This document shows positions 1 to 32,176 of a DNA stretch of 64,000 nucleotides, in pieces; position 1 is the stretch's first letter, and the number at the start of each line of letters is the position of its first letter. A model generated the notes under the pieces. It saw only the letters and a list, made by a program, of their open reading frames with translations, did no database searches and had not been told where the DNA came from. Origin of the DNA: Candidatus Aenigmatarchaeota archaeon (GTDB lineage Archaea; Aenigmatarchaeota; Aenigmatarchaeia; QMZP01; QMZT01). The position numbers and the translations under genes are program-made. Location: contig CAVSBQ010000002.1 of the NCBI GenBank assembly GCA_963726265.1, positions 480,001 to 544,000 of the forward strand, read 5' to 3'.

Positions 1-3000
1 CCGTTTCCATCAACCTCGTCGTATACGAGACCTTCCAAGGCGCGCCGATACTCGCGTATCAGTTTGCCCAACGGTTACCTATTTTCAGGAGAGGCTTCAG
101 GCTTAGATGCTTTCAGCCCTTATCCTCAGTGACGTAGCTACCCGGCAGTGCAGGCACAACCGGTACACCAGAGGTCACAACGCACTGTTCCTTTCGTACT
201 ATGTGCATTCTCCCCTCAGGTAACCAACACCTTCAGCAGATATAGACCATACTGGCTCGCACCGTATTTAACCCAGCTAGCGTGGCTCTTTAATGAGTGA
301 ACACCTCCACCCTTGGACGCTGCTGCACGTCCAGGAAGAGCCGAGCCGACGGCGGAGAAGCAACGAGCGCGGTCGATTTGACCTCTCACTTCCCGATATT
401 TTCATCACCGCGGCTTTCGAAAAAGCCGCGGCTCAATAGCCAACAGGTTATAACCTGCTGCTGTCCTGACAAAAAATTTGATACGCACTAAGGCGTACCA
501 TCTTCTTGTCCTGACTTCGAGAACGAGAAATGAGTTATGGACTCTCACGCGCCACGACTCCATTACCCCCAAGGTAACTTTTCTGACAGAGCTGGCTCCC
601 AGCTAATGGAGACACAGCGGATCGCTAGGCCACGCTTTCGCGTTAGGATTCCTCGCCTTGCGGAATCCTATCAGGCCGGCTTTTGCCCTTGCACTCTAAA
701 TTCCGATTTCTGACCGGAATGAGCCGACCTTAGGGCGCCTCTGATCCTTTATCAGAGGCGTACCGCCCCAGCCAAACTGCCCATCAATTGCTGTCCCCCT
801 AAAGGTAAGCAATATGTTAACGGTGGGTTGGTGTTACATTGACGCCTTCCCCAAACCCGAAGACTTGGGTGCGATGCTCCCAACTACACTATGCGACCAT
901 CAACATACCGCAACAACAGACTGCAGTAAAGTTCTATGGGGTCTTCTCGTCCCGCTGAAGGACTCCGGGTTATTCGCCGGACAACTAAGTTCGCTAGGTG
1001 TCAGGTCAAGACAGTGGGGATGTCGTTAAGCCATTCATGCAGGTCGACAATTAATCGACAAGGGATTACGCTACCTTAAGACGGTCAGAGTTACCGCCGC
1101 CGTTTACCGGGGCTTGGCTGGTTTTGGCCAGTTTAACACACCGGCACTGGGCAGGCATCAGGAGCTATACAAAGCGTTTCCACCTAGCAGCCCCCTACGT
1201 TTTTGTTAAACAGTCGCAACCCCCTTGTTACTGAGACCTACTCGTTCTGTCTGAGACAGAGGAGTAGGCACCCCTTATACCGAAGGTACAGGGCCAATTT
1301 GCCGAATTCCTTGACCTGACTTCTCCTAATACACCTTCGCCTTTTCAGCGAGGGGCACCAGTGACGGTTCTCGGTACGGTCATGAAAGATCCATTCAGAT
1401 TCCCTTTTCACCGATTCCAGGAGTCAACCGAACGGACATACGCCCGCTATTTCTGGTTTCGCCTGCTTCTCACCATTACGGTACTCCACAGGTTTCGCCA
1501 GTTAATCACCGAAGTGATCGGCATATCCCAAAATGTCAGGAATCAGACTTGTGTCGCCACACGTACTTCCATGGTGCAGGAATATTAACCTGCTTCCCTT
1601 TCGATAAGTTCCAGTTGGGGCTTGTCTTAGGACCGACTAACCCTCAGATGACGACCATTGCTGAGGAACCCTTGCCCTTTAGGTGGTGGAGTGTCTCACT
1701 CCACTATTGTTGCTACTATCAGCAAGATCCTTGTTCCTGTAAGGTCCATTCCCTCTTACGAAGAAACTTCTGCCCTACCAGGACACCTCTCTACCATAAT
1801 CCTTTCGGAATCTAAGATATCGGTACCAAACTTAGTCCCGTCCATTTTCAAGGCCCTCAACCTAGATAGGTGAGCTATTACGCTTTCTTTGAAGGGTGGC
1901 TGCTTCTAAGCCGACCTCCCTATTGTCTATGGGTGAAGACGCTTTTCATCACTTAGCTTGGATTTAGGGACCTTAATCTTAGGCTGGGTTCTTGCCCTTT
2001 CGGATACTGAGCTTACCCCAGTACCCCCACTCCGGCCTTCTACGGAGGATGGTAGATTCCGAGTTTGACAGTGCAACTGAACCTTTCGGTTCTTGGTTGC
2101 CCAATCAGTATCTATACCCTGCCATCTTCCTCCGGCCAGGCTATGCTGAGGCATATTTCGAGAGGAACCAGCTATTGCTGAACGCGATTAGCATTTCACT
2201 CCTAGCCCCAGGTCACGTGAGCGATTTGAATCTCAGCATCTCTATCGGGCCTCCATCTAGCTTTCGCCAGACTTCACCCTGCCAAGGGCTAGATCGTCCA
2301 GCTTCAGGTCTTACCCCTGTGACTTTAGGCTCTTTCAAACCTGACCGCCTGACGGCACAAAGCCGATGCGCGGTTCTTGCTTTCGCTGCGGGTACTTGAA
2401 TTACCCTCGCCACAGAAATAAACTCCTTGCCGCGTGTTTCCGCACGGGCGACAAAACTCCTGCAAGCAGGAGCCTTGCCTACCTATAATTACATGGTTTC
2501 AGGCTCTTTTCATCTCCGGTTAGAGATACTTTTCATTTTTCCGTCACCGTACTAGTGCGCTATCGGACTCGGGGTGTATTTAGGATTGGGAGTTACTGGC
2601 TCCCGTATTCCCAATGGATTTTCAACCAATGGTACTCTGGATACCCGCTATCAACCTTCTTCCTTGCTCATACGGGGCTATCACCCTCTACGGCAGATCT
2701 TTCCAGATCACTTTTGATTGAGAAGTTAGGCTGAGCACGGGTCCGAACCCCACATCTCTCCTGGCTTTCACCAAGAGATTCGGTTTGTCCTTTTCCCTTT
2801 TCAATCGCCTCTACTAGGGGAATCACGATTGTTTTCTTTTCCGGCCCTTACTAAGATGTTTCAATTTAGGGCGTCACCGATGACCCGAAGGTCAACGACA
2901 TATGTCAGGAAGTCCCATTAGGAGATCCCGGGTTCAAAGGCTGCTTGCGCCTACCCCGGGCATATCGCAGCTTGCCACGTCCTTCTTCGGCCCCCGAACC

Positions 3001-3025
3001 AAACCATCCACCACGTAACGTAGCA
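1..3025 (-). rRNA. rrl: 23S rRNA (3' end cut by window edge), contains a 159-nt intron
   Basis: Reverse complements of conserved LSU motifs: gcttagatgctttcagc (~101), cccagccaaactgccc (~766), ctaccttaagacggtc (~1071), gggcatatcgcagcttgccacgtccttc (~2958). 5' end approximate. Confidence 0.97.
378..536 (-). other. 23S rRNA intron in the helix 89 loop (E. coli ~2477/2478), relaxed BHB, no ORF
   Basis: Removing it restores GAGAGUCCAU-AUCGAC. 11-bp closing stem CUCAUUUCUCG/CGGGAAGUGAG, central helix GUCC/GGUC with one U-U, bulges AUA and AAA. Confidence 0.85.
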
Positions 3026-3433
3026 GATCCTTTTTGTCAGGACAACTCGCCTATGTTTCATCATCAAGGAACTCAAATGGTGTTCACTTTTTCATAGAAA
3101 GCGAAAGACGCAAGCTCGCGCATGCGTCTGTCTGCCTCCTCAAGTGACTGTCTGAAGAGTCATCATTCCTCTCCAATCCACCCGCCAAAATTTATTGGCG
3201 AGCTTCATATACCGACATGCAGAATTGCATCGCCGCATACCGGTTTCTTTGTAATTTGGTTAACATGAACTAGCTACCAATAGCTTGTTCAGAATAAGAC
3301 AGACATACTCGCGTACGCCACCCTCTGACTGCATGACCTCTTTCCCTGTCACGGATCAAAGGCCAAGTCTCTGAACAGCTTTGGATAGCCATTGTTAGGA
3401 AACGTATTGCATCACTGCAAGTTTCCGTAAGCG

Positions 3434-23284: not shown

Positions 23285-24283
23285 ATGGCAAGAGGTCACA
23301 AACCACGAGCGGGTTCGAGAGCATTCTGGCCGAAGAAGCGGGCGAAAAGGATATACCCGAGATTAAAGCACTCGCCGCAGCTTGACATAGTTGCGAAAAA
23401 AGTAAGCGGCACCAGGCCGATCGAATTCGCGGGCTACAAGGCGGGCATGACCCACGTCATCTTCAACGACACGCGAAAGAAAAGCGTCAGCCATGGCATG
23501 GACGTTTCTAAAGCGGTCTCCGTTATCGAATGCCCGCCGCTTTTCGTTTTCGGCATAAAGCTTTACACGAGGGATTCGAATGGCTACGCAACCATGGGCA
23601 TGATATGGTCAAAGGACCTGAAAAGGGATATCGTGAGGAAGCTTGACGTGCCTAAAAAGACGAAGGCGTCGGTTCAGGATTTCGAAGGCAGGCTTGCGCA
23701 GGTCGCGGATGTCCGCGTTCTTGTCCAGACGCAACCGAGGGATACTGGCTTAGGAAAGAAAAAGCCCGAGGTCTTCGAGCTCGACCTTTCCGGTTCGACC
23801 GGGGAAAAATGGCAATACGCGAAGGAGAAGCTCGGCAAGGAAATCGACGTGCGCGACGTTTTCTCCGAAGGTGAGTATGTCGACGTCAAGGGAGTGACGA
23901 AAGGCAAAGGCTACCAGGGCCCTGTCAAGAGGTTCGGCATAAAAATCAGGTCGCGCAAAAACAAGCTCAAGATGCGCCACCTGGGAACCATGGGTCCTGT
24001 CACCCCGAGCAGGGTTCTGCCAGGCGCGGTCGCTCAGGCGGGCCAGATGGGCTTCCAGACCAGAACCGAGTTCAACAAGCGCCTGGTGAAGATAGGCAGC
24101 GACGGCGTAAAAATCGATGGTGGCTTCATCAATTACGGCGAGGTCAGGAAGAATTATGTTCTCATCGAGGGCTCTGTTCCCGGCGCAAGGAAGAGGCTGA
24201 TTTTCTTCAGGAAGTCGTTCAGAAGAATGGACGAGAGAGATCCGACGGAACTGAAATCAATACACACCGGCTCGCAGCAGTAA
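23285..24283 (+). CDS. rpl3: 50S ribosomal protein uL3
   Basis: AGYKAGMTH, TKGKGYQGPVKRFG, AGQMGFQTRTEFNK. Confidence 0.97.
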   Translation: MARGHKPRAGSRAFWPKKRAKRIYPRLKHSPQLDIVAKKVSGTRPIEFAGYKAGMTHVIFNDTRKKSVSHGMDVSKAVSVIECPPLFVFGIKLYTRDSNGYATMGMIWSKDLKRDIVRKLDVPKKTKASVQDFEGRLAQVADVRVLVQTQPRDTGLGKKKPEVFELDLSGSTGEKWQYAKEKLGKEIDVRDVFSEGEYVDVKGVTKGKGYQGPVKRFGIKIRSRKNKLKMRHLGTMGPVTPSRVLPGAVAQAGQMGFQTRTEFNKRLVKIGSDGVKIDGGFINYGEVRKNYVLIEGSVPGARKRLIFFRKSFRRMDERDPTELKSIHTGSQQ

Positions 24284-24853: not shown

Positions 24854-26080
24854 CTAAACCTTGTATCTCAGAATCCCGCCTATGCCGCCCATTTCTTTGA
24901 GCTGGCTGCCTTCTTTCGTGTCGGACGATATCATCTCGACGTTGGTGCTCATTTCTTCAGCCATCTTCACTATCTCGTCCGTCAGGTCTTTCTCGGCCAG
25001 GATTTCGTAAAGCTCGCTGCACTTCGGGCATTTCAGGCTCTCGAGCTTGTCCCTCGCCATCACGGCGTCGCTCTCCTCTCCGCATTTGGGGCACTTGACC
25101 CTCGCCTTCACCCAGTCGAGCTTGTCGGAAACCAGCAGGATTTCCATGGTGCCTGCCTTTAGCGCGTCGATAATCTCCTTGAGCCCGTATACCGCGAGGC
25201 CGGAATCCTTGCCGAGCTCGTTGAAAAAGCGCATGAGCAGCTTCTTCTCCTTCATCACGCTCGCTTCCTTGAGCGCTTCCTCGGACCTGTTGACCGCTTC
25301 CTCGAGGCCGTATTCCCCCATGTATGATATGTCGACGACGCCGATGACCTTTTTCTGGAAGTCGTATCTCAGAAACCCGCCTGAAGCGAATGTATCTTTC
25401 ACCGGGCCCGGCCCTCCCACTATGATGCCTATCAGGTCTTTCTGCTCATCGAACTGTTTGGAAGCGATGTCGCCGACCTTCTTCATGAAGTCGTTGAGCA
25501 GGCCCTCGCGCACGCGCGCATATCTGGCTTGGGACCACCCACCTGCCTCTGTTTTTCCTGGCACAAGAGAGTCCATATGCTTCAGCGGCCTGACCTTCTT
25601 GCCGTGCAATATCCCTACGTCCGCCTCGGACTTGTCGATTATCACGATGCCGAATATCTCGCGCTCGCGTATCATCTCCTTCAGCGGGTCGAGCACGAAT
25701 TTCTGGTCGCACCAGTAAAGCCGCTGTTTCATTGGTTCCGGCGGCTCAAGGGCGAATATCTCGACATCCGAAACTCCTTCGCGCTCAGAGATGTTTCCGG
25801 AAAAAACGACCAGGCCGTTCGGAGGCGTTTGCTTATACAGTTTCAGGTGCTGGGTTATGCGCTCGAGCGCGGACATGACGTTCTTGCGCACGGACTTCGA
25901 CTTGATGTTTTGGGCGGTCGACTTCTCGTTGCTTATCTGCTCGACCACTTTAAAGAGGTTGAAGCCCGCAGGAATGTAAACGGAAACGAGCTCCGTATGG
26001 CGACCCTTGAACTTGTCCAGTTCTTCGACTAAGTCTTTCAATCTTCTCTTCCGTATGTCCTCATGCGTCATATTTATCAC
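24854..26080 (-). CDS. prf1: Peptide chain release factor aRF1 with an atypical GGWSQ catalytic loop
   Basis: TELVSVYIP, TAQNIKS, YWCDQKF, C-terminal CPKC..CPKC minidomain, GGIGGILRY. Start may be 26071. Confidence 0.95.
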   Translation of the reverse strand: MINMTHEDIRKRRLKDLVEELDKFKGRHTELVSVYIPAGFNLFKVVEQISNEKSTAQNIKSKSVRKNVMSALERITQHLKLYKQTPPNGLVVFSGNISEREGVSDVEIFALEPPEPMKQRLYWCDQKFVLDPLKEMIREREIFGIVIIDKSEADVGILHGKKVRPLKHMDSLVPGKTEAGGWSQARYARVREGLLNDFMKKVGDIASKQFDEQKDLIGIIVGGPGPVKDTFASGGFLRYDFQKKVIGVVDISYMGEYGLEEAVNRSEEALKEASVMKEKKLLMRFFNELGKDSGLAVYGLKEIIDALKAGTMEILLVSDKLDWVKARVKCPKCGEESDAVMARDKLESLKCPKCSELYEILAEKDLTDEIVKMAEEMSTNVEMISSDTKEGSQLKEMGGIGGILRYKV

Positions 26081-26143: not shown

Positions 26144-27496
26144 TCAGGCCTTTCTGGCAAATGTCAAGAGCTTGTCATTAACCATATCTGGCTCGGGTAT
26201 GCAGATATCTTCAAAAATAATCCATTCGGCATCATAATCTGATTTTTGTTTATACTCCGATTCCGTGTGATATTCGCTTTCAATCTGATAGTCAGAAAGC
26301 GAAAATGTTTTTTCCTTCTTTGATTTGTATTTTTCCTCGCTTATAGCATCTTTTATGTGTGTCTCTTTTTTCAGTTCAATGGAAAATTCTTCGTGTGGCG
26401 GCGGCGAATAGGATTGCTGCTGCACGGATGTTGTGAATCTCCATTTTTCTTTCCCATTTAAGGCGTTCAAACAGTAGAGATGACAGTCCCAACTACCGAA
26501 ATAAATATTATCATTAAAGAAACATGGAAAATCATAAACAGATCCGCCTGCCCTGAATCTCCAGAGCTCTTTTCCGTCTAAATTTAGTGCGTAAACATTA
26601 CTGTCCTCGGATGGCAGATAGATTATGCCATCTTTTATTCCTACACCGATTACGATGCCACCGGTTCTGAACCTCCACAGTTCCTTGCCGTTCAGATCCA
26701 GAGCGAACAGTATCCCGTCTCTGGAGCCTATGTAAAGAACTCCTTGGTAAACTAAAGGTGAGCTCGAAAGTCCGAGTTTGCCAAGCTTGCTTCGCCACAA
26801 TTCCTTTCCCGTATCTGCCCTTAAGGCGTACAGGTAATTGTCCCAAGAAGGAATGTATACCACATCTTCATGAACGAGCAGTGTGTTATCACTTTGTACT
26901 TCCCCGCCCGTCCTGAACCTCCATATTTCCTTTCCTGTTTCTTCCTCCAGACAATAAAGATTTCCGTCGAAGCTGCCCACGTAAACTCTTCCTTTGTAAG
27001 CCACAGGAGAGAATGCCGATTCATCACCCATTCTGAATCTCCATATCTCCCTTCCATCTTTGGTATTCAAACAATACAGATTGCTGTCCCTTGAAGTGAA
27101 ATATAATTTTTCACTATTAACAAATGGGAGGCAGAATATTTCTTTTGAGGCCTGGAAAGACCATATTTCTTTGCCTGTCTCGAAATCTATTGCATACATC
27201 TTTCCACCATAACCACCAACATAGATAACATCCTCGTAAACTTCAGAGACTGGTGAAAGTACCATTCCGTTGGTTTTGAACTTCCATATTTCCTCACCAT
27301 TTTCTGCGTTTATGCAATAAATATAGTGATCCATGCAACCAAAATATGCTTTGTTACCATGTGCTCTGGAATAGCATATGCTACCTCCAAAACCGTGCCT
27401 CCATATCCTGTCGAATTTCTTTATCTTCTTAATTTCAAAATCCTCTAATTCCGTTTCAAAATCGGCGGATTCGAAACCTTCAAAGCCGAAATCCAT
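26144..27496 (-). CDS. PQQ-like (BamB-type) beta-propeller repeat protein, no signal peptide
   Basis: Many GSxDxxLYxL...GKExWRF repeats. Confidence 0.9.
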   Translation of the reverse strand: MDFGFEGFESADFETELEDFEIKKIKKFDRIWRHGFGGSICYSRAHGNKAYFGCMDHYIYCINAENGEEIWKFKTNGMVLSPVSEVYEDVIYVGGYGGKMYAIDFETGKEIWSFQASKEIFCLPFVNSEKLYFTSRDSNLYCLNTKDGREIWRFRMGDESAFSPVAYKGRVYVGSFDGNLYCLEEETGKEIWRFRTGGEVQSDNTLLVHEDVVYIPSWDNYLYALRADTGKELWRSKLGKLGLSSSPLVYQGVLYIGSRDGILFALDLNGKELWRFRTGGIVIGVGIKDGIIYLPSEDSNVYALNLDGKELWRFRAGGSVYDFPCFFNDNIYFGSWDCHLYCLNALNGKEKWRFTTSVQQQSYSPPPHEEFSIELKKETHIKDAISEEKYKSKKEKTFSLSDYQIESEYHTESEYKQKSDYDAEWIIFEDICIPEPDMVNDKLLTFARKA

Positions 27497-28825
27497 AATT
27501 CTTCCTCCACTATGTTTTCAAAAGTCACTAAATTGACATCATAATCCGACTTCTGTTTGTATTCGGATGTCGTTGAGTATTCGCTTGTGACATGATAATC
27601 GGAAAGCGAAACTGTCTCGTCCTTCTTTTTCGCTTTATACCTGTCATCGGATACCGCGTCTTCGACGTGCGTTTCCTTCTTTATCTCGGCGCTGAACGAG
27701 GCGTGCGCCGGCGCTATGTATGCCTGCACCATTGTCGAGGTCGGGCATCTCCACACTTCCTTTCTTTTGTCTATGTCTATGGCGTAAAAATAACAGTCCC
27801 AGCTGCCGATGTAAACCTTGCCTTCGTGCAGGAGGAACTTGCCATACGTCCTCCCGCCGGTCCTGAACCTCCAGAGCTCTTTGCCTGCCATGTCCAGAAA
27901 ATAAACATTCTCGTCCTCGCAGCCGAAAATTATCATGCCGTTGTAAAGCCTCGGCTGCTGCCCGATTATCGGCCCTCCCGCGCGGAAGCGCCAGAGCTCC
28001 CTGCCCCTGAGAGTGAGGGCGAAAAAGTCCCCGTCCCTTGTGCCGAAGTAAAGCACGTTATTATGGACGATTGGCATGCTGCCTCCGATGCCGTATTTGC
28101 CCGATTTGAATCTCCACAACTCCTTGCCGGTATTGCAGTCAACGGCGTAAAGATAATTGTCGAGGCTGCCGAAATAGAGAACTCCCCTGTGGATTATGAA
28201 GGGTATGTTGTTTATCATCTCGTCGCCCGTCCTGAACCTCCACAGCTCCTTTCCGGTTTTGGCGTCAAGGCAATACATGTTGTGGTCGTAAGACGTGATG
28301 TAAACCTTTCCGTTTTCAACCAGTGGTGATGACGCTATCTCCCCGCCCGTCCTGAACCGCCAGTTCTTCCTTGCCGGTCTCGCAGCTGACCGCATAAACG
28401 TTACCGTCCATCGAACCGAAATAGGCATTTTTACCGTAAACGAACGGCGAGCTGAATATCTTGCCCGAGGTCTTGAAAACCCAGACTGCGTCCCTTTTTT
28501 CCAAATCTATCCTGTAGAGGTTCCCGTCGTATGAACCTATGATTATCGAGTTATCGAAAAGCGCAGGCGAGGAGCCGACAATGCTGTCGTTGGTCCTGAA
28601 CGTCCAGATGACTTTGCCACTTCCGGCATCAACCGCATAGACTTGGCCGTCGCATGCGCCAAAGTATATGACCCCTTCGTGCATCAGCGGGTTGTTGTCT
28701 ATGCTGCCGCCAGGGCTCGTCTTCCATACCCTGTCGTACGTCTTCGTCTTCTTCACCACGATTTCCTCGACGTCTACGTCGAAAGCGGAGAAGCCGGAGT
28801 CAAGGTCCTCGAATCCGAAGTCCAT
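27445..28825 (-). CDS. PQQ-like beta-propeller repeat protein (paralogue), frameshifted near 28362
   Basis: ORFs 28316-28825 and 27445-28428 join at GKE..WRFRTGG; same MDFGFE start and C-terminal tail as the neighbouring copy. Confidence 0.85.
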
Positions 28826-28969: not shown

Positions 28970-29042
28970 AGCCCCGTAGTCTAGTGGCCAAGGATAACAG
29001 GCTCTGGACCTGTGGACGGCGGTTCGAATCCGCCCGGGGCTA
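28970..29042 (+). tRNA. tRNA-Gln(CUG)
   Basis: Acceptor AGCCCCG/CGGGGCU-A, anticodon arm ACAGG-CU-CUG-GA-CCUGU, T arm GGCGG-UUCGAAU-CCGCC. Confidence 0.97.
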
Positions 29043-30669: not shown

Positions 30670-31377
30670 ATGGTTGGTTTGATGTTGGAAAGGGTTAAGA
30701 CTGGCATAGAAGGCCTGGACGAGATAATGAACGGCGGCATTCCCAAGGGGCAACTCGTGCTCATTTCAGGCACGTGCGGCACCGGCAAAACGACCATGTG
30801 CTCCCAATACGTCTACAACGGCCTGACCAAGTTCAAGGAAAACGCCATTTATCTTTCCTTCGAGGAGATGCCCCAGAACATAAAGAACAACGTCAAACAG
30901 TTCGGCATAGACTTTGAGCCCTTCGAGAAGGCCGGCAGGTTCGCCTTCCTCAAATACGACCCATACCACGTCGAAGAGGTGTTCGACATCCTGGAAAACT
31001 CCATAAGGGACATGGGGGCGCATAGGGTCGTTATCGACTCCGTTTCCGCGCTCGGCATCCACGTCAGGGACAAGGCCGAGCTGAGGCGCATGATATTCAA
31101 CCTTTCGGTCGTGCTCAGGAAACTGGGCTGCACCGCGTTCCTGGTCTCGGAAATCGTCCCCGGAAGCGAGGGCATTTCCAGATACGGCGTTGAGGAATTC
31201 GTGACGGACAGCGTGATTGTCCTTTACTACGAAAGGAGCGATTTCACGTTCAACCGCGCCATCCAGGTGTGGAAAATGAGCGGCTCCGACCACTCGAAAA
31301 AGCTGCATCCCTACAAGATAACGGAAAAAGGCGTGAGCGTGCAGCACAGGGACGAGGCCTTCTTCAGGAAAACCTGA
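30670..31377 (+). CDS. KaiC-like RecA-superfamily ATPase, single domain
   Basis: TGIEGLDEIMNGG, GTCGTGKT, SFEE, VVIDS, EEFVTDSVI. Confidence 0.9.
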   Translation: MVGLMLERVKTGIEGLDEIMNGGIPKGQLVLISGTCGTGKTTMCSQYVYNGLTKFKENAIYLSFEEMPQNIKNNVKQFGIDFEPFEKAGRFAFLKYDPYHVEEVFDILENSIRDMGAHRVVIDSVSALGIHVRDKAELRRMIFNLSVVLRKLGCTAFLVSEIVPGSEGISRYGVEEFVTDSVIVLYYERSDFTFNRAIQVWKMSGSDHSKKLHPYKITEKGVSVQHRDEAFFRKT

Positions 31378-32176
31378 GCGCCTTCCTGAGCTTTTCGAAA
31401 TCATCCGCTTTCAGGTCCCCGGCTTTCTTCCCGAGCATCTTTTCGTGCAGCCCCATTTTTTTGCTGCGTTCCCTCGCCATGTTCTTGGTGAAACGGCCAC
31501 CGAGGATTTTCGTGTTCAGGCTTATGAGAGCCTCAACGAGCGAGTTCCTGAGCTTCTTGTCCTTTTGCAGGAATATCTCCCGGAAAACGAATTTTTCAGG
31601 ACTCTTTCTGTAGGCGTCCATCGAGAGCGGTTTCAGGACAACGGCGACCGATTCCGTCCTCGGCGGGGGGTCGAAATCATCCTTCTTTATTCTGAACGCG
31701 AAATCGGTTCTGAAGAAACACTGGGCCCTGAGCGAGAGCGTTGAATAATTTTTTTCGCCCGGTCCTGATGAGATTATCTTGTAAAAGCCTTCTGGCACGC
31801 TGAGAACGGCGAGATCGAAGCTTCTGCCGGAAAGTTTTCCCAGGAGCGGCTCGCAGATGGCATAAGGTATGTTTGAAACTATCTTGTTGAATCCGGTTTT
31901 GTCGATGATGTCCAGCGCGTTGGCATAAATTATCTCGACGTTCCCTGCGCCAAGCCTGCCCAGCTTTCCGGCGAACCTCCTGTCCATCTCGACGGCGATG
32001 ACCCTGCCCGCCTTCCTTGCCAGTGCCTTCGTGAGTATGCCGAAACCGGCGCCTATTTCCAGCACCGTGTCCCTGCGGCCTACGCCGGCACACGAGACTA
32101 GTCTTTCGACGGTTTCCCGGCTCGTCATCATGTGCTGGTCTTTCGCCGGCTCCGTCTGGAAGGCTTCTTTCCTCAT
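31364..32176 (-). CDS. rsmA: 16S rRNA adenine dimethyltransferase, KsgA/Dim1 family
   Basis: DQHMM, VLEIGAGFG, VSNIPY, FDPPPRTES. Confidence 0.9.
   Translation of the reverse strand: MRKEAFQTEPAKDQHMMTSRETVERLVSCAGVGRRDTVLEIGAGFGILTKALARKAGRVIAVEMDRRFAGKLGRLGAGNVEIIYANALDIIDKTGFNKIVSNIPYAICEPLLGKLSGRSFDLAVLSVPEGFYKIISSGPGEKNYSTLSLRAQCFFRTDFAFRIKKDDFDPPPRTESVAVVLKPLSMDAYRKSPEKFVFREIFLQKDKKLRNSLVEALISLNTKILGGRFTKNMARERSKKMGLHEKMLGKKAGDLKADDFEKLRKALRFS

Follow-up and report, generated by a model that had tools for sequence, protein, structure and literature searches.

The window analysed here is the whole stretch of 64,000 nt from the genome of a Candidatus Aenigmatarchaeota archaeon (GCA_963726265.1, contig CAVSBQ010000002.1, positions 480,001 to 544,000), and its minus strand carries a gene for the archaeal class-I release factor aRF1 in which the catalytic GGQ motif is replaced by GGW, followed by a glutamine two residues on (GGWSQ). 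The translation of the minus-strand open reading frame (ORF) 24854..26080 includes VPGKTEAGGWSQARYARVRE, and the database form of the protein (P0002), 405 aa long and starting at the ATG at 26071, shows 100% identity to the window protein. The features discussed below are listed in Table 1.

The assignment to aRF1 is based on the NCBIfam equivalog model TIGR03676 (aRF1_eRF1), which scored 474 bits against a cut-off of 234.7 and covered residues 11-408, on the three Pfam domains and on the stop-recognition motifs NIKS and YxCxxxF. The statement of a first-pass annotation, made from the sequence alone, that TAQNIKS, YWCDQKF and all three domains are intact was thus borne out. An AlphaFold2 (AF2) model, computed from a 96-sequence alignment with a mean predicted local distance difference test (pLDDT) score of 87.5, had the archaeal aRF1 4af1 as its best Foldseek match (E 3.7e-43) and a template modelling (TM) score of 0.81 to eRF1 in the eRF1-eRF3 state (5lzt, 3j5y). 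As for the zinc ribbon, C351 is invariant among relatives and C330, C333 and C354 are at least 90% conserved.

With the aRF1/eRF1 family (TIGR03676; 4af1, 3agk, 1dt9) the protein shares the three domains, NIKS and YxCxxxF, the loop length, the Arg-rich helix after the loop, the full-length equivalog score and the occurrence as a single copy beside pelota. It differs in having Trp for the GGQ Gln (W182 aligns with the Gln of 4af1), a Gln two residues on, and no partner methyltransferase Mtq2. Since the invariant GGQ reads GGW, we classify the protein as orthologous to aRF1 but variant in its catalytic motif, rather than as a textbook member. Pelota/Dom34 is paralogous, has M and C domains of the same kind and likewise lacks the catalytic Gln, but it has an Sm-like N domain without NIKS; a separate pelota gene lies at about 895 kb of G000:C2, and the window protein scored 91 bits with the pelota model TIGR00111, below the cut-off of 177.65.

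Table 1. Position of the aRF1 gene, its domains and motifs, and other features in the window.
Feature	Position	Strand	Remarks
aRF1 gene	24854..26080	(-)	408 codons from GTG at 26080; stop codon 24854-24856
Catalytic loop G180-G181-W182-S183-Q184	25529..25543	(-)	codons GGT GGG TGG TCC CAA
W182	25535-25537	(-)	TGG, at the universal Gln position
Q184	25529-25531	(-)	CAA, two residues downstream of W182
N domain (eRF1_1), residues 17-137	25670..26032	(-)	Pfam PF03463, 64.6 bits
NIKS of TAQNIKS (motif residues 55-61)	25898-25909	(-)	in N domain; read from sequence
YWCDQKF, residues 122-128	25697-25717	(-)	in N domain; read from sequence
M domain (eRF1_2) with catalytic loop, residues 143-272	25265..25654	(-)	PF03464, 118.3 bits
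C domain (eRF1_3), residues 275-408	24857..25258	(-)	PF03465, 91.8 bits
CxxC...CxxC zinc ribbon inserted in C domain	25019-25093	(-)	C330, C333, C351, C354
tRNA-Gln(CUG)	28970..29042	(+)	
KsgA (rRNA dimethylase)	31364-32176		best TIGR00537 match, 23.6 bits
23S rRNA	1-3035	(-)	L172; compared with L173-L179

Catalytic loop of aRF1

In the phmmer alignment with PDB entry 4af1_A no gap was introduced at the loop ('pgkteaggwsqaryarvre' against 'pgkqrkggqsaqrfarlrl'), whose length is that of canonical loops. The GGWSQ loop, for which the first-pass annotation had reported the same codons as those found here, is thus the result of a double substitution in GGQSA (Gln to W182 and Ala to Q184) and not of an insertion.

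A miscall at the tryptophan codon, deemed unlikely from the outset, found no support. TGG is present in 29 of the 30 genes of relatives, in which the adjoining GGN and Ser codons differ synonymously, TCN/AGY switches included. Of the 120 nearest protein clusters, several of them named Aenigmatarchaeota or Aenigmarchaeota by their source, all but one show GGW, the exception having GGQ; an intein interrupts one of the 119 GGW loops. Logan contigs of the public runs X2, X3 and X5 span the loop site (that of X1 does not) and showed no variant at codon 25535-25537, hence neither CAG nor CAA, with synonymous changes around it (25529 T>C; 25533/25534 GA>CT, that is Ser TCC to AGC; 25541 A>T). The same TGG recurs in more than 80 independent assemblies as well as in contigs from other runs. 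With the reading frame intact, a confident AF2 model and nothing found in favour of a sequencing or assembly artefact or of a decaying gene, both can be dismissed with near certainty. As judged from these alignments, W182 is under purifying selection, being fixed amid synonymous change, and NIKS and YxCxxxF are kept in the lineages lacking Gln at this position (hereafter non-Q).

A single release factor and ordinary decoding

The genome that contains the window measures 1.13 Mb in 4 contigs and is 88% complete. Searching it with eRF1_2 returned two matches, the aRF1 gene and a 334-aa pelota, and no bacterial RF-1/ArfB domain was found in the same 88% complete sequence. Neither a second aRF1, which the first-pass annotation had suggested looking for, nor a bacterial release factor was thus found in the assembled genome. 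The 22 other genomes of the family all conform to this, with a single-copy aRF1 and no match over the cut-off of the Mtq2 model TIGR00537 (0/22).

All three stop codons are in use (TGA 396, TAA 300 and TAG 178 in 874 long ORFs), and termination is therefore needed for all three. The tRNA-Gln(CUG) of the window, together with tRNA-Gln(UUG) and tRNA-Trp(CCA) encoded elsewhere in the genome, indicates an ordinary reading of CAR and TGG. Two aragorn predictions were rejected: a UAA suppressor 'tRNA-Stop' (aragorn -i, G000:C2:959878-960001, L327:279-402) proved to be a mis-spliced tRNA-Gln(UUG) with a 51-nt intron after position 37, and a 'tRNA-Pyl' (C2:1081281-1081869) was without Rfam support. 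Codon reassignment and a suppressor tRNA were rejected on these grounds.

Replacement of the catalytic Gln within the phylum

Scanning of the phylum gave an aRF1 match in 340 of 371 genomes. Loops were extracted from 155 of them, chosen as the top-scoring and mostly intein-free matches, and the sample consequently leans towards relatives of the query. It comprised 121 non-Q loops (W 86, M 31, Y 2, F 1, A 1) and 34 with Gln. A further 14 genomes, from the prospective test reported in the next section, raised these numbers by 4 and 10, respectively; pooled, the GGQ Gln is replaced by W, M, F, Y or A in 125 of 169 genomes, the common replacements being all large hydrophobic or aromatic residues. 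The decoding motifs are retained in the non-Q sequences of the phylum sample (NIKS/NVKS in 108/117, YxCxxxF in 116/117).

The residue two positions downstream (+2) covaries with this replacement, being Gln in 107 of 118 intein-free non-Q loops. The phylum's 33 GGQ loops have Ser (17), Ala (15) or Gln (1) there. Position 187 covaries as well, with Tyr in 105/117 non-Q and Phe in 29/33 GGQ sequences. The idea of a register-shifted Gln, put forward in the first-pass annotation, is supported by this association; the shifted Gln is not obligatory, as the loops GGWSAN, GGWSAS and GGMSAR indicate.

The same loops bear on the alternative that no Gln side chain takes part in catalysis, the work being left to the main-chain amide of W182 and to the peptidyl-transferase centre (PTC), and that Q184 is merely helix-capping or structural and covaries by chance. 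Shaw and Green are reported to have found, in 2007, that hydrolysis is only modestly slowed when the Gln of RF1 is replaced by most other residues. GGWSAS and GGMSAR have no amide side chain nearby, yet they belong to sole aRF1 genes nested among GGWSQ relatives, and in the AF2 model the helix begins at residue 182, which would place Q184 in its first turn. PMC6742477, moreover, credits catalysis of hydrolysis to the backbone amide of the GGQ Gln. The counts speak against a backbone-only mechanism, with Gln at +2 far more often in non-Q than in GGQ loops of the same phylum (107/118 vs 1/33) and, where Q184 is lost, Asn usually at +3 (GGWSAN in 9 of 10 W-S-A genomes). Retention of the +2 Gln and the Asn at +3 suggest that an amide near the loop tip is favoured, and we regard the backbone-only alternative as rather unlikely.

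One relative (L010, G021:C150:14718-15935) has one in-frame TGA inside its aRF1 match. In the wider protein library, aRF1-like representatives with GGF, GGS, GGE or GGA were also seen (P0158, P0204, P0225, P0263, P0267 and others); the GGE forms pair with GGQ sisters in the neighbour-joining (NJ) tree described below, with bootstrap values of 100% and 56%, and may be second paralogues.

Loss of the methyltransferase Mtq2

The Gln in the GGQ of archaeal aRF1 is methylated by Mtq2. This enzyme is described as present in all archaea, and the modification as conserved across the three domains of life (PMC6144793); the human orthologue of Mtq2, HEMK2, prefers the sequence G-Q-X3-R (PMC10804810). 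Of the phylum's 371 genomes, 127 had a match above the cut-off of the HemK2/MTQ2 model TIGR00537. Within the 155-genome sample, the 34 GGQ genomes were divided into 28 positive, 2 scoring near 80 bits and 4 without a match; both sub-cut-off genomes hold full-length NPPY proteins (G029, 79.7 bits, examined further; G328, 80.2 bits). The 121 non-Q genomes gave no match in 110 cases, a weak one in 10 (mostly partial matches or long frames) and a nominally positive one in G034. The protein of G034 (L203:413-1552) and a like protein of G087 (L204), one of the 14 further genomes, were rejected as Mtq2, being about 380 aa long, with NGPT instead of NPPY and matching only positions 7-148 of the model.

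The prospective test was made on Mtq2-positive genomes chosen from genera and families outside the earlier sample, and all of them (8/8) had GGQ, while 5 genomes without Mtq2 had GGM (3) or GGQ (2). Pooling the data, Mtq2 is present in 36 of 44 GGQ genomes and canonical Mtq2 in none of 125 non-Q genomes. The rule holds in one direction: no Gln at the canonical position, no Mtq2.

In the genome of the window no Mtq2 orthologue with NPPY was found, the best TIGR00537 match being KsgA (Table 1), and Trm112 is present (35 bits), as expected given its other partners; these are the results of the methylase check proposed in the first-pass annotation. The context of the relocated Gln, S-Q-A-R-Y-A, does not fit G-Q-X3-R.

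Two GGQ genomes, G068 (L195, 87% complete) and G204 (L196, 79% complete), had no detectable Mtq2; it is possible that methylation was lost there before the Gln, making them intermediates, or that the assemblies have gaps. Some GGW genomes encode proteins of about 380 aa in whose central, HemK-like methyltransferase domain NGPT stands for NPPY, and match geometry suggests them in G014, G332 and G333 as well; the genome of the window lacks them.

GGWSQ loops in other proteins

The pattern K-x3-GGWSQxR[YF]xR was scanned over one genome per prokaryote species, giving at least 120 stretches, and the DNA of 80 was examined. Among the matches listed, those with upstream NIKS and YxCxxxF were classical aRF1 from records labelled Aenigmatarchaeota or 'uncultured archaeon' and from one metagenome-assembled genome (MAG) labelled Candidatus Iainarchaeum. 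The protein of the latter (L236) scored 372.7 bits with TIGR03676 on a 313-residue piece, and in its genome, whose completeness is not stated, eRF1_2 matched once and nothing exceeded the Mtq2 cut-off. The matches listed also included a Nocardioides acVLRF1 peptidyl-tRNA hydrolase (L219; NF041024, 244 bits) and an actinomycete protein of the Rv2629 family (L220; 181.8 bits, partial sequence).

The form of the aRF1 loop is identical to that of acVLRF1/aVLRF-type proteins, and eukaryotic ANKZF1 cleaves tRNA. The window protein might accordingly be thought to decode stop codons and free the peptide by VLRF1/Vms1-type chemistry, cutting the 3' end of the tRNA instead of hydrolysing the ester. We consider this highly unlikely. 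A CCA cut at every termination would demand constant tRNA repair in an organism with a 1.1-Mb genome, the acVLRF1 model failed on the window protein (NF041024, 46.7 vs 125 bits), and masking of the motif leaves the protein no nearer to the VLRF profiles. Burroughs and Aravind (2019), moreover, argue in the text of PMC6514570 that GGxSQ and GxuQ are hydrolase loops and predict the factors that carry them to be active hydrolases. In the same text GGQ is the motif of classical aeRF-1, and GGxSQ that of aVLRF-1 and acVLRF-1, which, like L219 in our own scan, agrees with the first-pass annotation in placing this loop type in the VLRF1 clade; no mention of a classical aRF1 with GGxSQ was seen in it, its figures and supplements apart.

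For the kinship test, profiles of four GGWSQ groups other than aRF1, with the five motif residues masked, were compared with equally masked aRF1. The non-Q aRF1 of the phylum scored 4-7 bits above GGQ aRF1 (median) with overlapping ranges, and a special kinship with VLRF1 was rejected on this ground. The window protein has in common with aVLRF-1/acVLRF-1 (NF041024, PF18859) the GGxSQ loop, and with L219 the extended pattern K-x3-GGWSQxR[YF]xR, and does not have their architecture; these factors act in rescue and are without one of two domains, the stop-codon domain or the pelota-like C-terminal one, whereas the window protein has both and would be the sole terminator of its genome.

The Rv2629-family match bears on a further alternative, in which the window protein merely decodes stop codons or parks on ribosomes in an Rv2629-like manner and hydrolysis is left to an unrecognised protein. 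The GGWSQ loop of L220 and the 88% completeness of the genome are in its favour. With the Balon-type Rv2629/MSMEG_1130 factors the window protein has in common the fold of the aeRF1 superfamily, which binds the A site. Those factors are without NIKS and YxCxxxF, and the window protein remained far below the cut-offs of their models (43.4 vs 320 and 30.6 vs 480). Against the alternative, no other eRF1_2 or RF-1 domain occurs in the genome, the equivalog score is full-length, the decoding motifs are intact and the same single-copy pattern is found family-wide, which leaves a decoder-only role hardly credible.

NIKS-less GGWSQ paralogues of the aeRF1 superfamily, of two sequence types, were seen among the matches listed in Methanosarcinales, Methanothrix, Methanoperedens and a Thermoplasmatales MAG (L214-L216, L229, L230, L234, L238-L240, L246, L254, L256, L259, L261, L262, L264, L265, L277, L278, L286). 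One of them, L229, reached 99 bits with the aRF1 model and 86 bits with that of the hibernation factor MSMEG_1130.

Phylogeny and 23S rRNA

Our NJ tree was built from 178 sequences with 100 bootstraps, after dropping 5 intein-bearing or truncated rows. The non-Q aRF1 group with the GGQ aRF1 of their own phylum, and the order of the window's genome forms a clade (76% bootstrap) with GGQ genera nested inside; deep nodes are unsupported. That the nested GGQ genera retain Mtq2 argues for several losses of the Gln rather than for reversals. The undistinctive masked profiles and the grouping of non-Q with own-phylum GGQ sequences favour, at the level of sequence, a GGWSQ loop of aRF1 convergent on the VLRF1 design over a relic or an intermediate. 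The suggestion of an evolutionary intermediate, made in the first-pass annotation, consequently found no support: GGW lies inside a phylum whose other families keep GGQ and Mtq2, and the masked gain is the small and overlapping one given above.

The PTC was compared in the 23S rRNA of 4 non-Q and 4 GGQ/Mtq2-positive genomes, of which the G141 sequence aligned poorly. In what we take to be E. coli numbering, which is used throughout this paragraph, the 23S rRNA of the window keeps GGGUU 2581-2585, A2451, U2506 and A2602, and no change specific to non-Q genomes was found in this small sample of 8. The lineage has a paired C2452U/U2504C swap and a residue other than A at 2503, both common to the GGQ relative G038, and G292 has U at 2062. 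Some 23S genes carry a 70-100-nt insertion just past the 2452 region, where G231 has a long ORF-bearing intron.

Inteins at the catalytic loop

Split aRF1 matches were obtained for many of the phylum's genomes. Junctions were examined in four genomes (L167-L170, from G009, G008, G033 and G029, respectively) and in ten representative clusters (P0109, P0122, P0124, P0125, P0128, P0130, P0135, P0137, P0164 and P0204), and every interruption examined was a canonical intein of 134-563 residues, with Cys1 at the start, His-Asn at the end and Ser at +1. The insertion point lies exactly between the Q, W, M, F or S residue of GGX and the next Ser, that is at the W|S junction in relatives of the window protein. 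The intein N-termini are mostly CVHE(D/N) in W-type exteins and mostly CL(A/S)PDT in Q-type exteins. As a speculation, homing with co-conversion of the flanking codons may have helped to spread the W allele. Nothing relevant on inteins in archaeal release factors was found in the literature.

Proposed mechanism

The aRF1 of the window is quite probably a working release factor, the sole one of class I in its genome, with a remodelled and unmethylated catalytic loop in which GG-W-S-Q takes the place of GG-Q-S-A. Its ordinary N domain would decode all three stop codons, and the GGWSQ loop would enter the PTC and hydrolyse peptidyl-tRNA. Aminoacyl side chains normally occupy a hydrophobic pocket in the A site of the PTC, and the large hydrophobic residue 182 (W here; M, F or Y in sister lineages) may anchor the loop tip there. 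Positioning of the water would then fall to the main-chain amide at position 182, aided in most lineages by Gln184, in the GGxSQ layout used by VLRF1-type factors. We propose that N5-methylation was abandoned and Mtq2 lost because the relocated Gln, lying outside the Mtq2/HEMK2 target, no longer fits G-Q-x3-R.

Several points weigh against this proposal. We infer release activity from the single-copy status and the conservation of the gene, and a second factor might in principle lie on DNA missing from the 88% complete genome, the uniform pattern in its family notwithstanding. As the loop has the canonical length, a shift of the register by two residues would put W and S at the glycine sites. 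The +2 residue is Ala in 11 of 118 non-Q loops (GGWSAN in 9 genomes, GGWSAS in 1 and GGMSAR in 1), in sequences that nest among GGWSQ relatives in the NJ tree, so that Q184 would be favoured but dispensable rather than strictly required. GGWSQ is also found in an Rv2629-type hibernation factor, and the motif alone does not prove catalysis. Absence of Mtq2, for its part, does not by itself predict loss of the Gln, as 2/5 genomes without Mtq2 in the prospective test have GGQ and 4/34 GGQ genomes of the sample have no Mtq2, in assemblies that are incomplete. Finally, related genomes are not independent and a Fisher test overstates the association of Mtq2 with GGQ, for which the recurrence of the pattern in different families and the prospective test carry the weight.

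A wider reading can be offered only tentatively. A large DPANN radiation, comprising most sampled Aenigmatarchaeota and at least one MAG labelled Iainarchaeum, may terminate all of its proteins without the catalytic Gln or its methylation, the aromatic residue or Met acting as a mimic of an A-site aminoacyl side chain and the downstream Gln being optional; the GGWSQ loop would have arisen by convergence on the design seen in VLRF1 rescue factors and in Rv2629-type hibernation factors, and intein co-conversion may have helped to spread the allele.

The observation made in the first-pass annotation is thus confirmed and its interpretation partly supported, and the variation is far broader than one gene: an aRF1 orthologue fails the best-known defining feature of its family and the matching modification enzyme has been shed. 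The literature treats GGQ as invariant throughout the class-I release factors, and the phylum provides a natural counter-example on its own scale, with sole release factors that have W, M, F or Y, Gln at +2 in most of them, and Mtq2 lost alongside. No published report of a sole aRF1 lacking GGQ in this way was found, and the figures (2G), alignments or supplements of PMC6514570 might show such variants. These natural sequences make testable the contribution of the Gln side chain and of its methyl group, as well as the sufficiency of the backbone, and they link ordinary termination to the GGxSQ loop of the VLRF1 rescue factors. The results also concern annotation pipelines and completeness markers in which archaea are taken to have GGQ or Mtq2.

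Neighbouring genes

Directly downstream of aRF1 as numbered in the window, at 26144-28428 (-), lie two adjacent paralogous genes for beta-propeller repeat proteins (WRF/YxxS-type), both with similar Ser/Tyr/Lys-rich C-terminal tails. The gene for ribosomal protein L3 is located at 23285-24283 (+).

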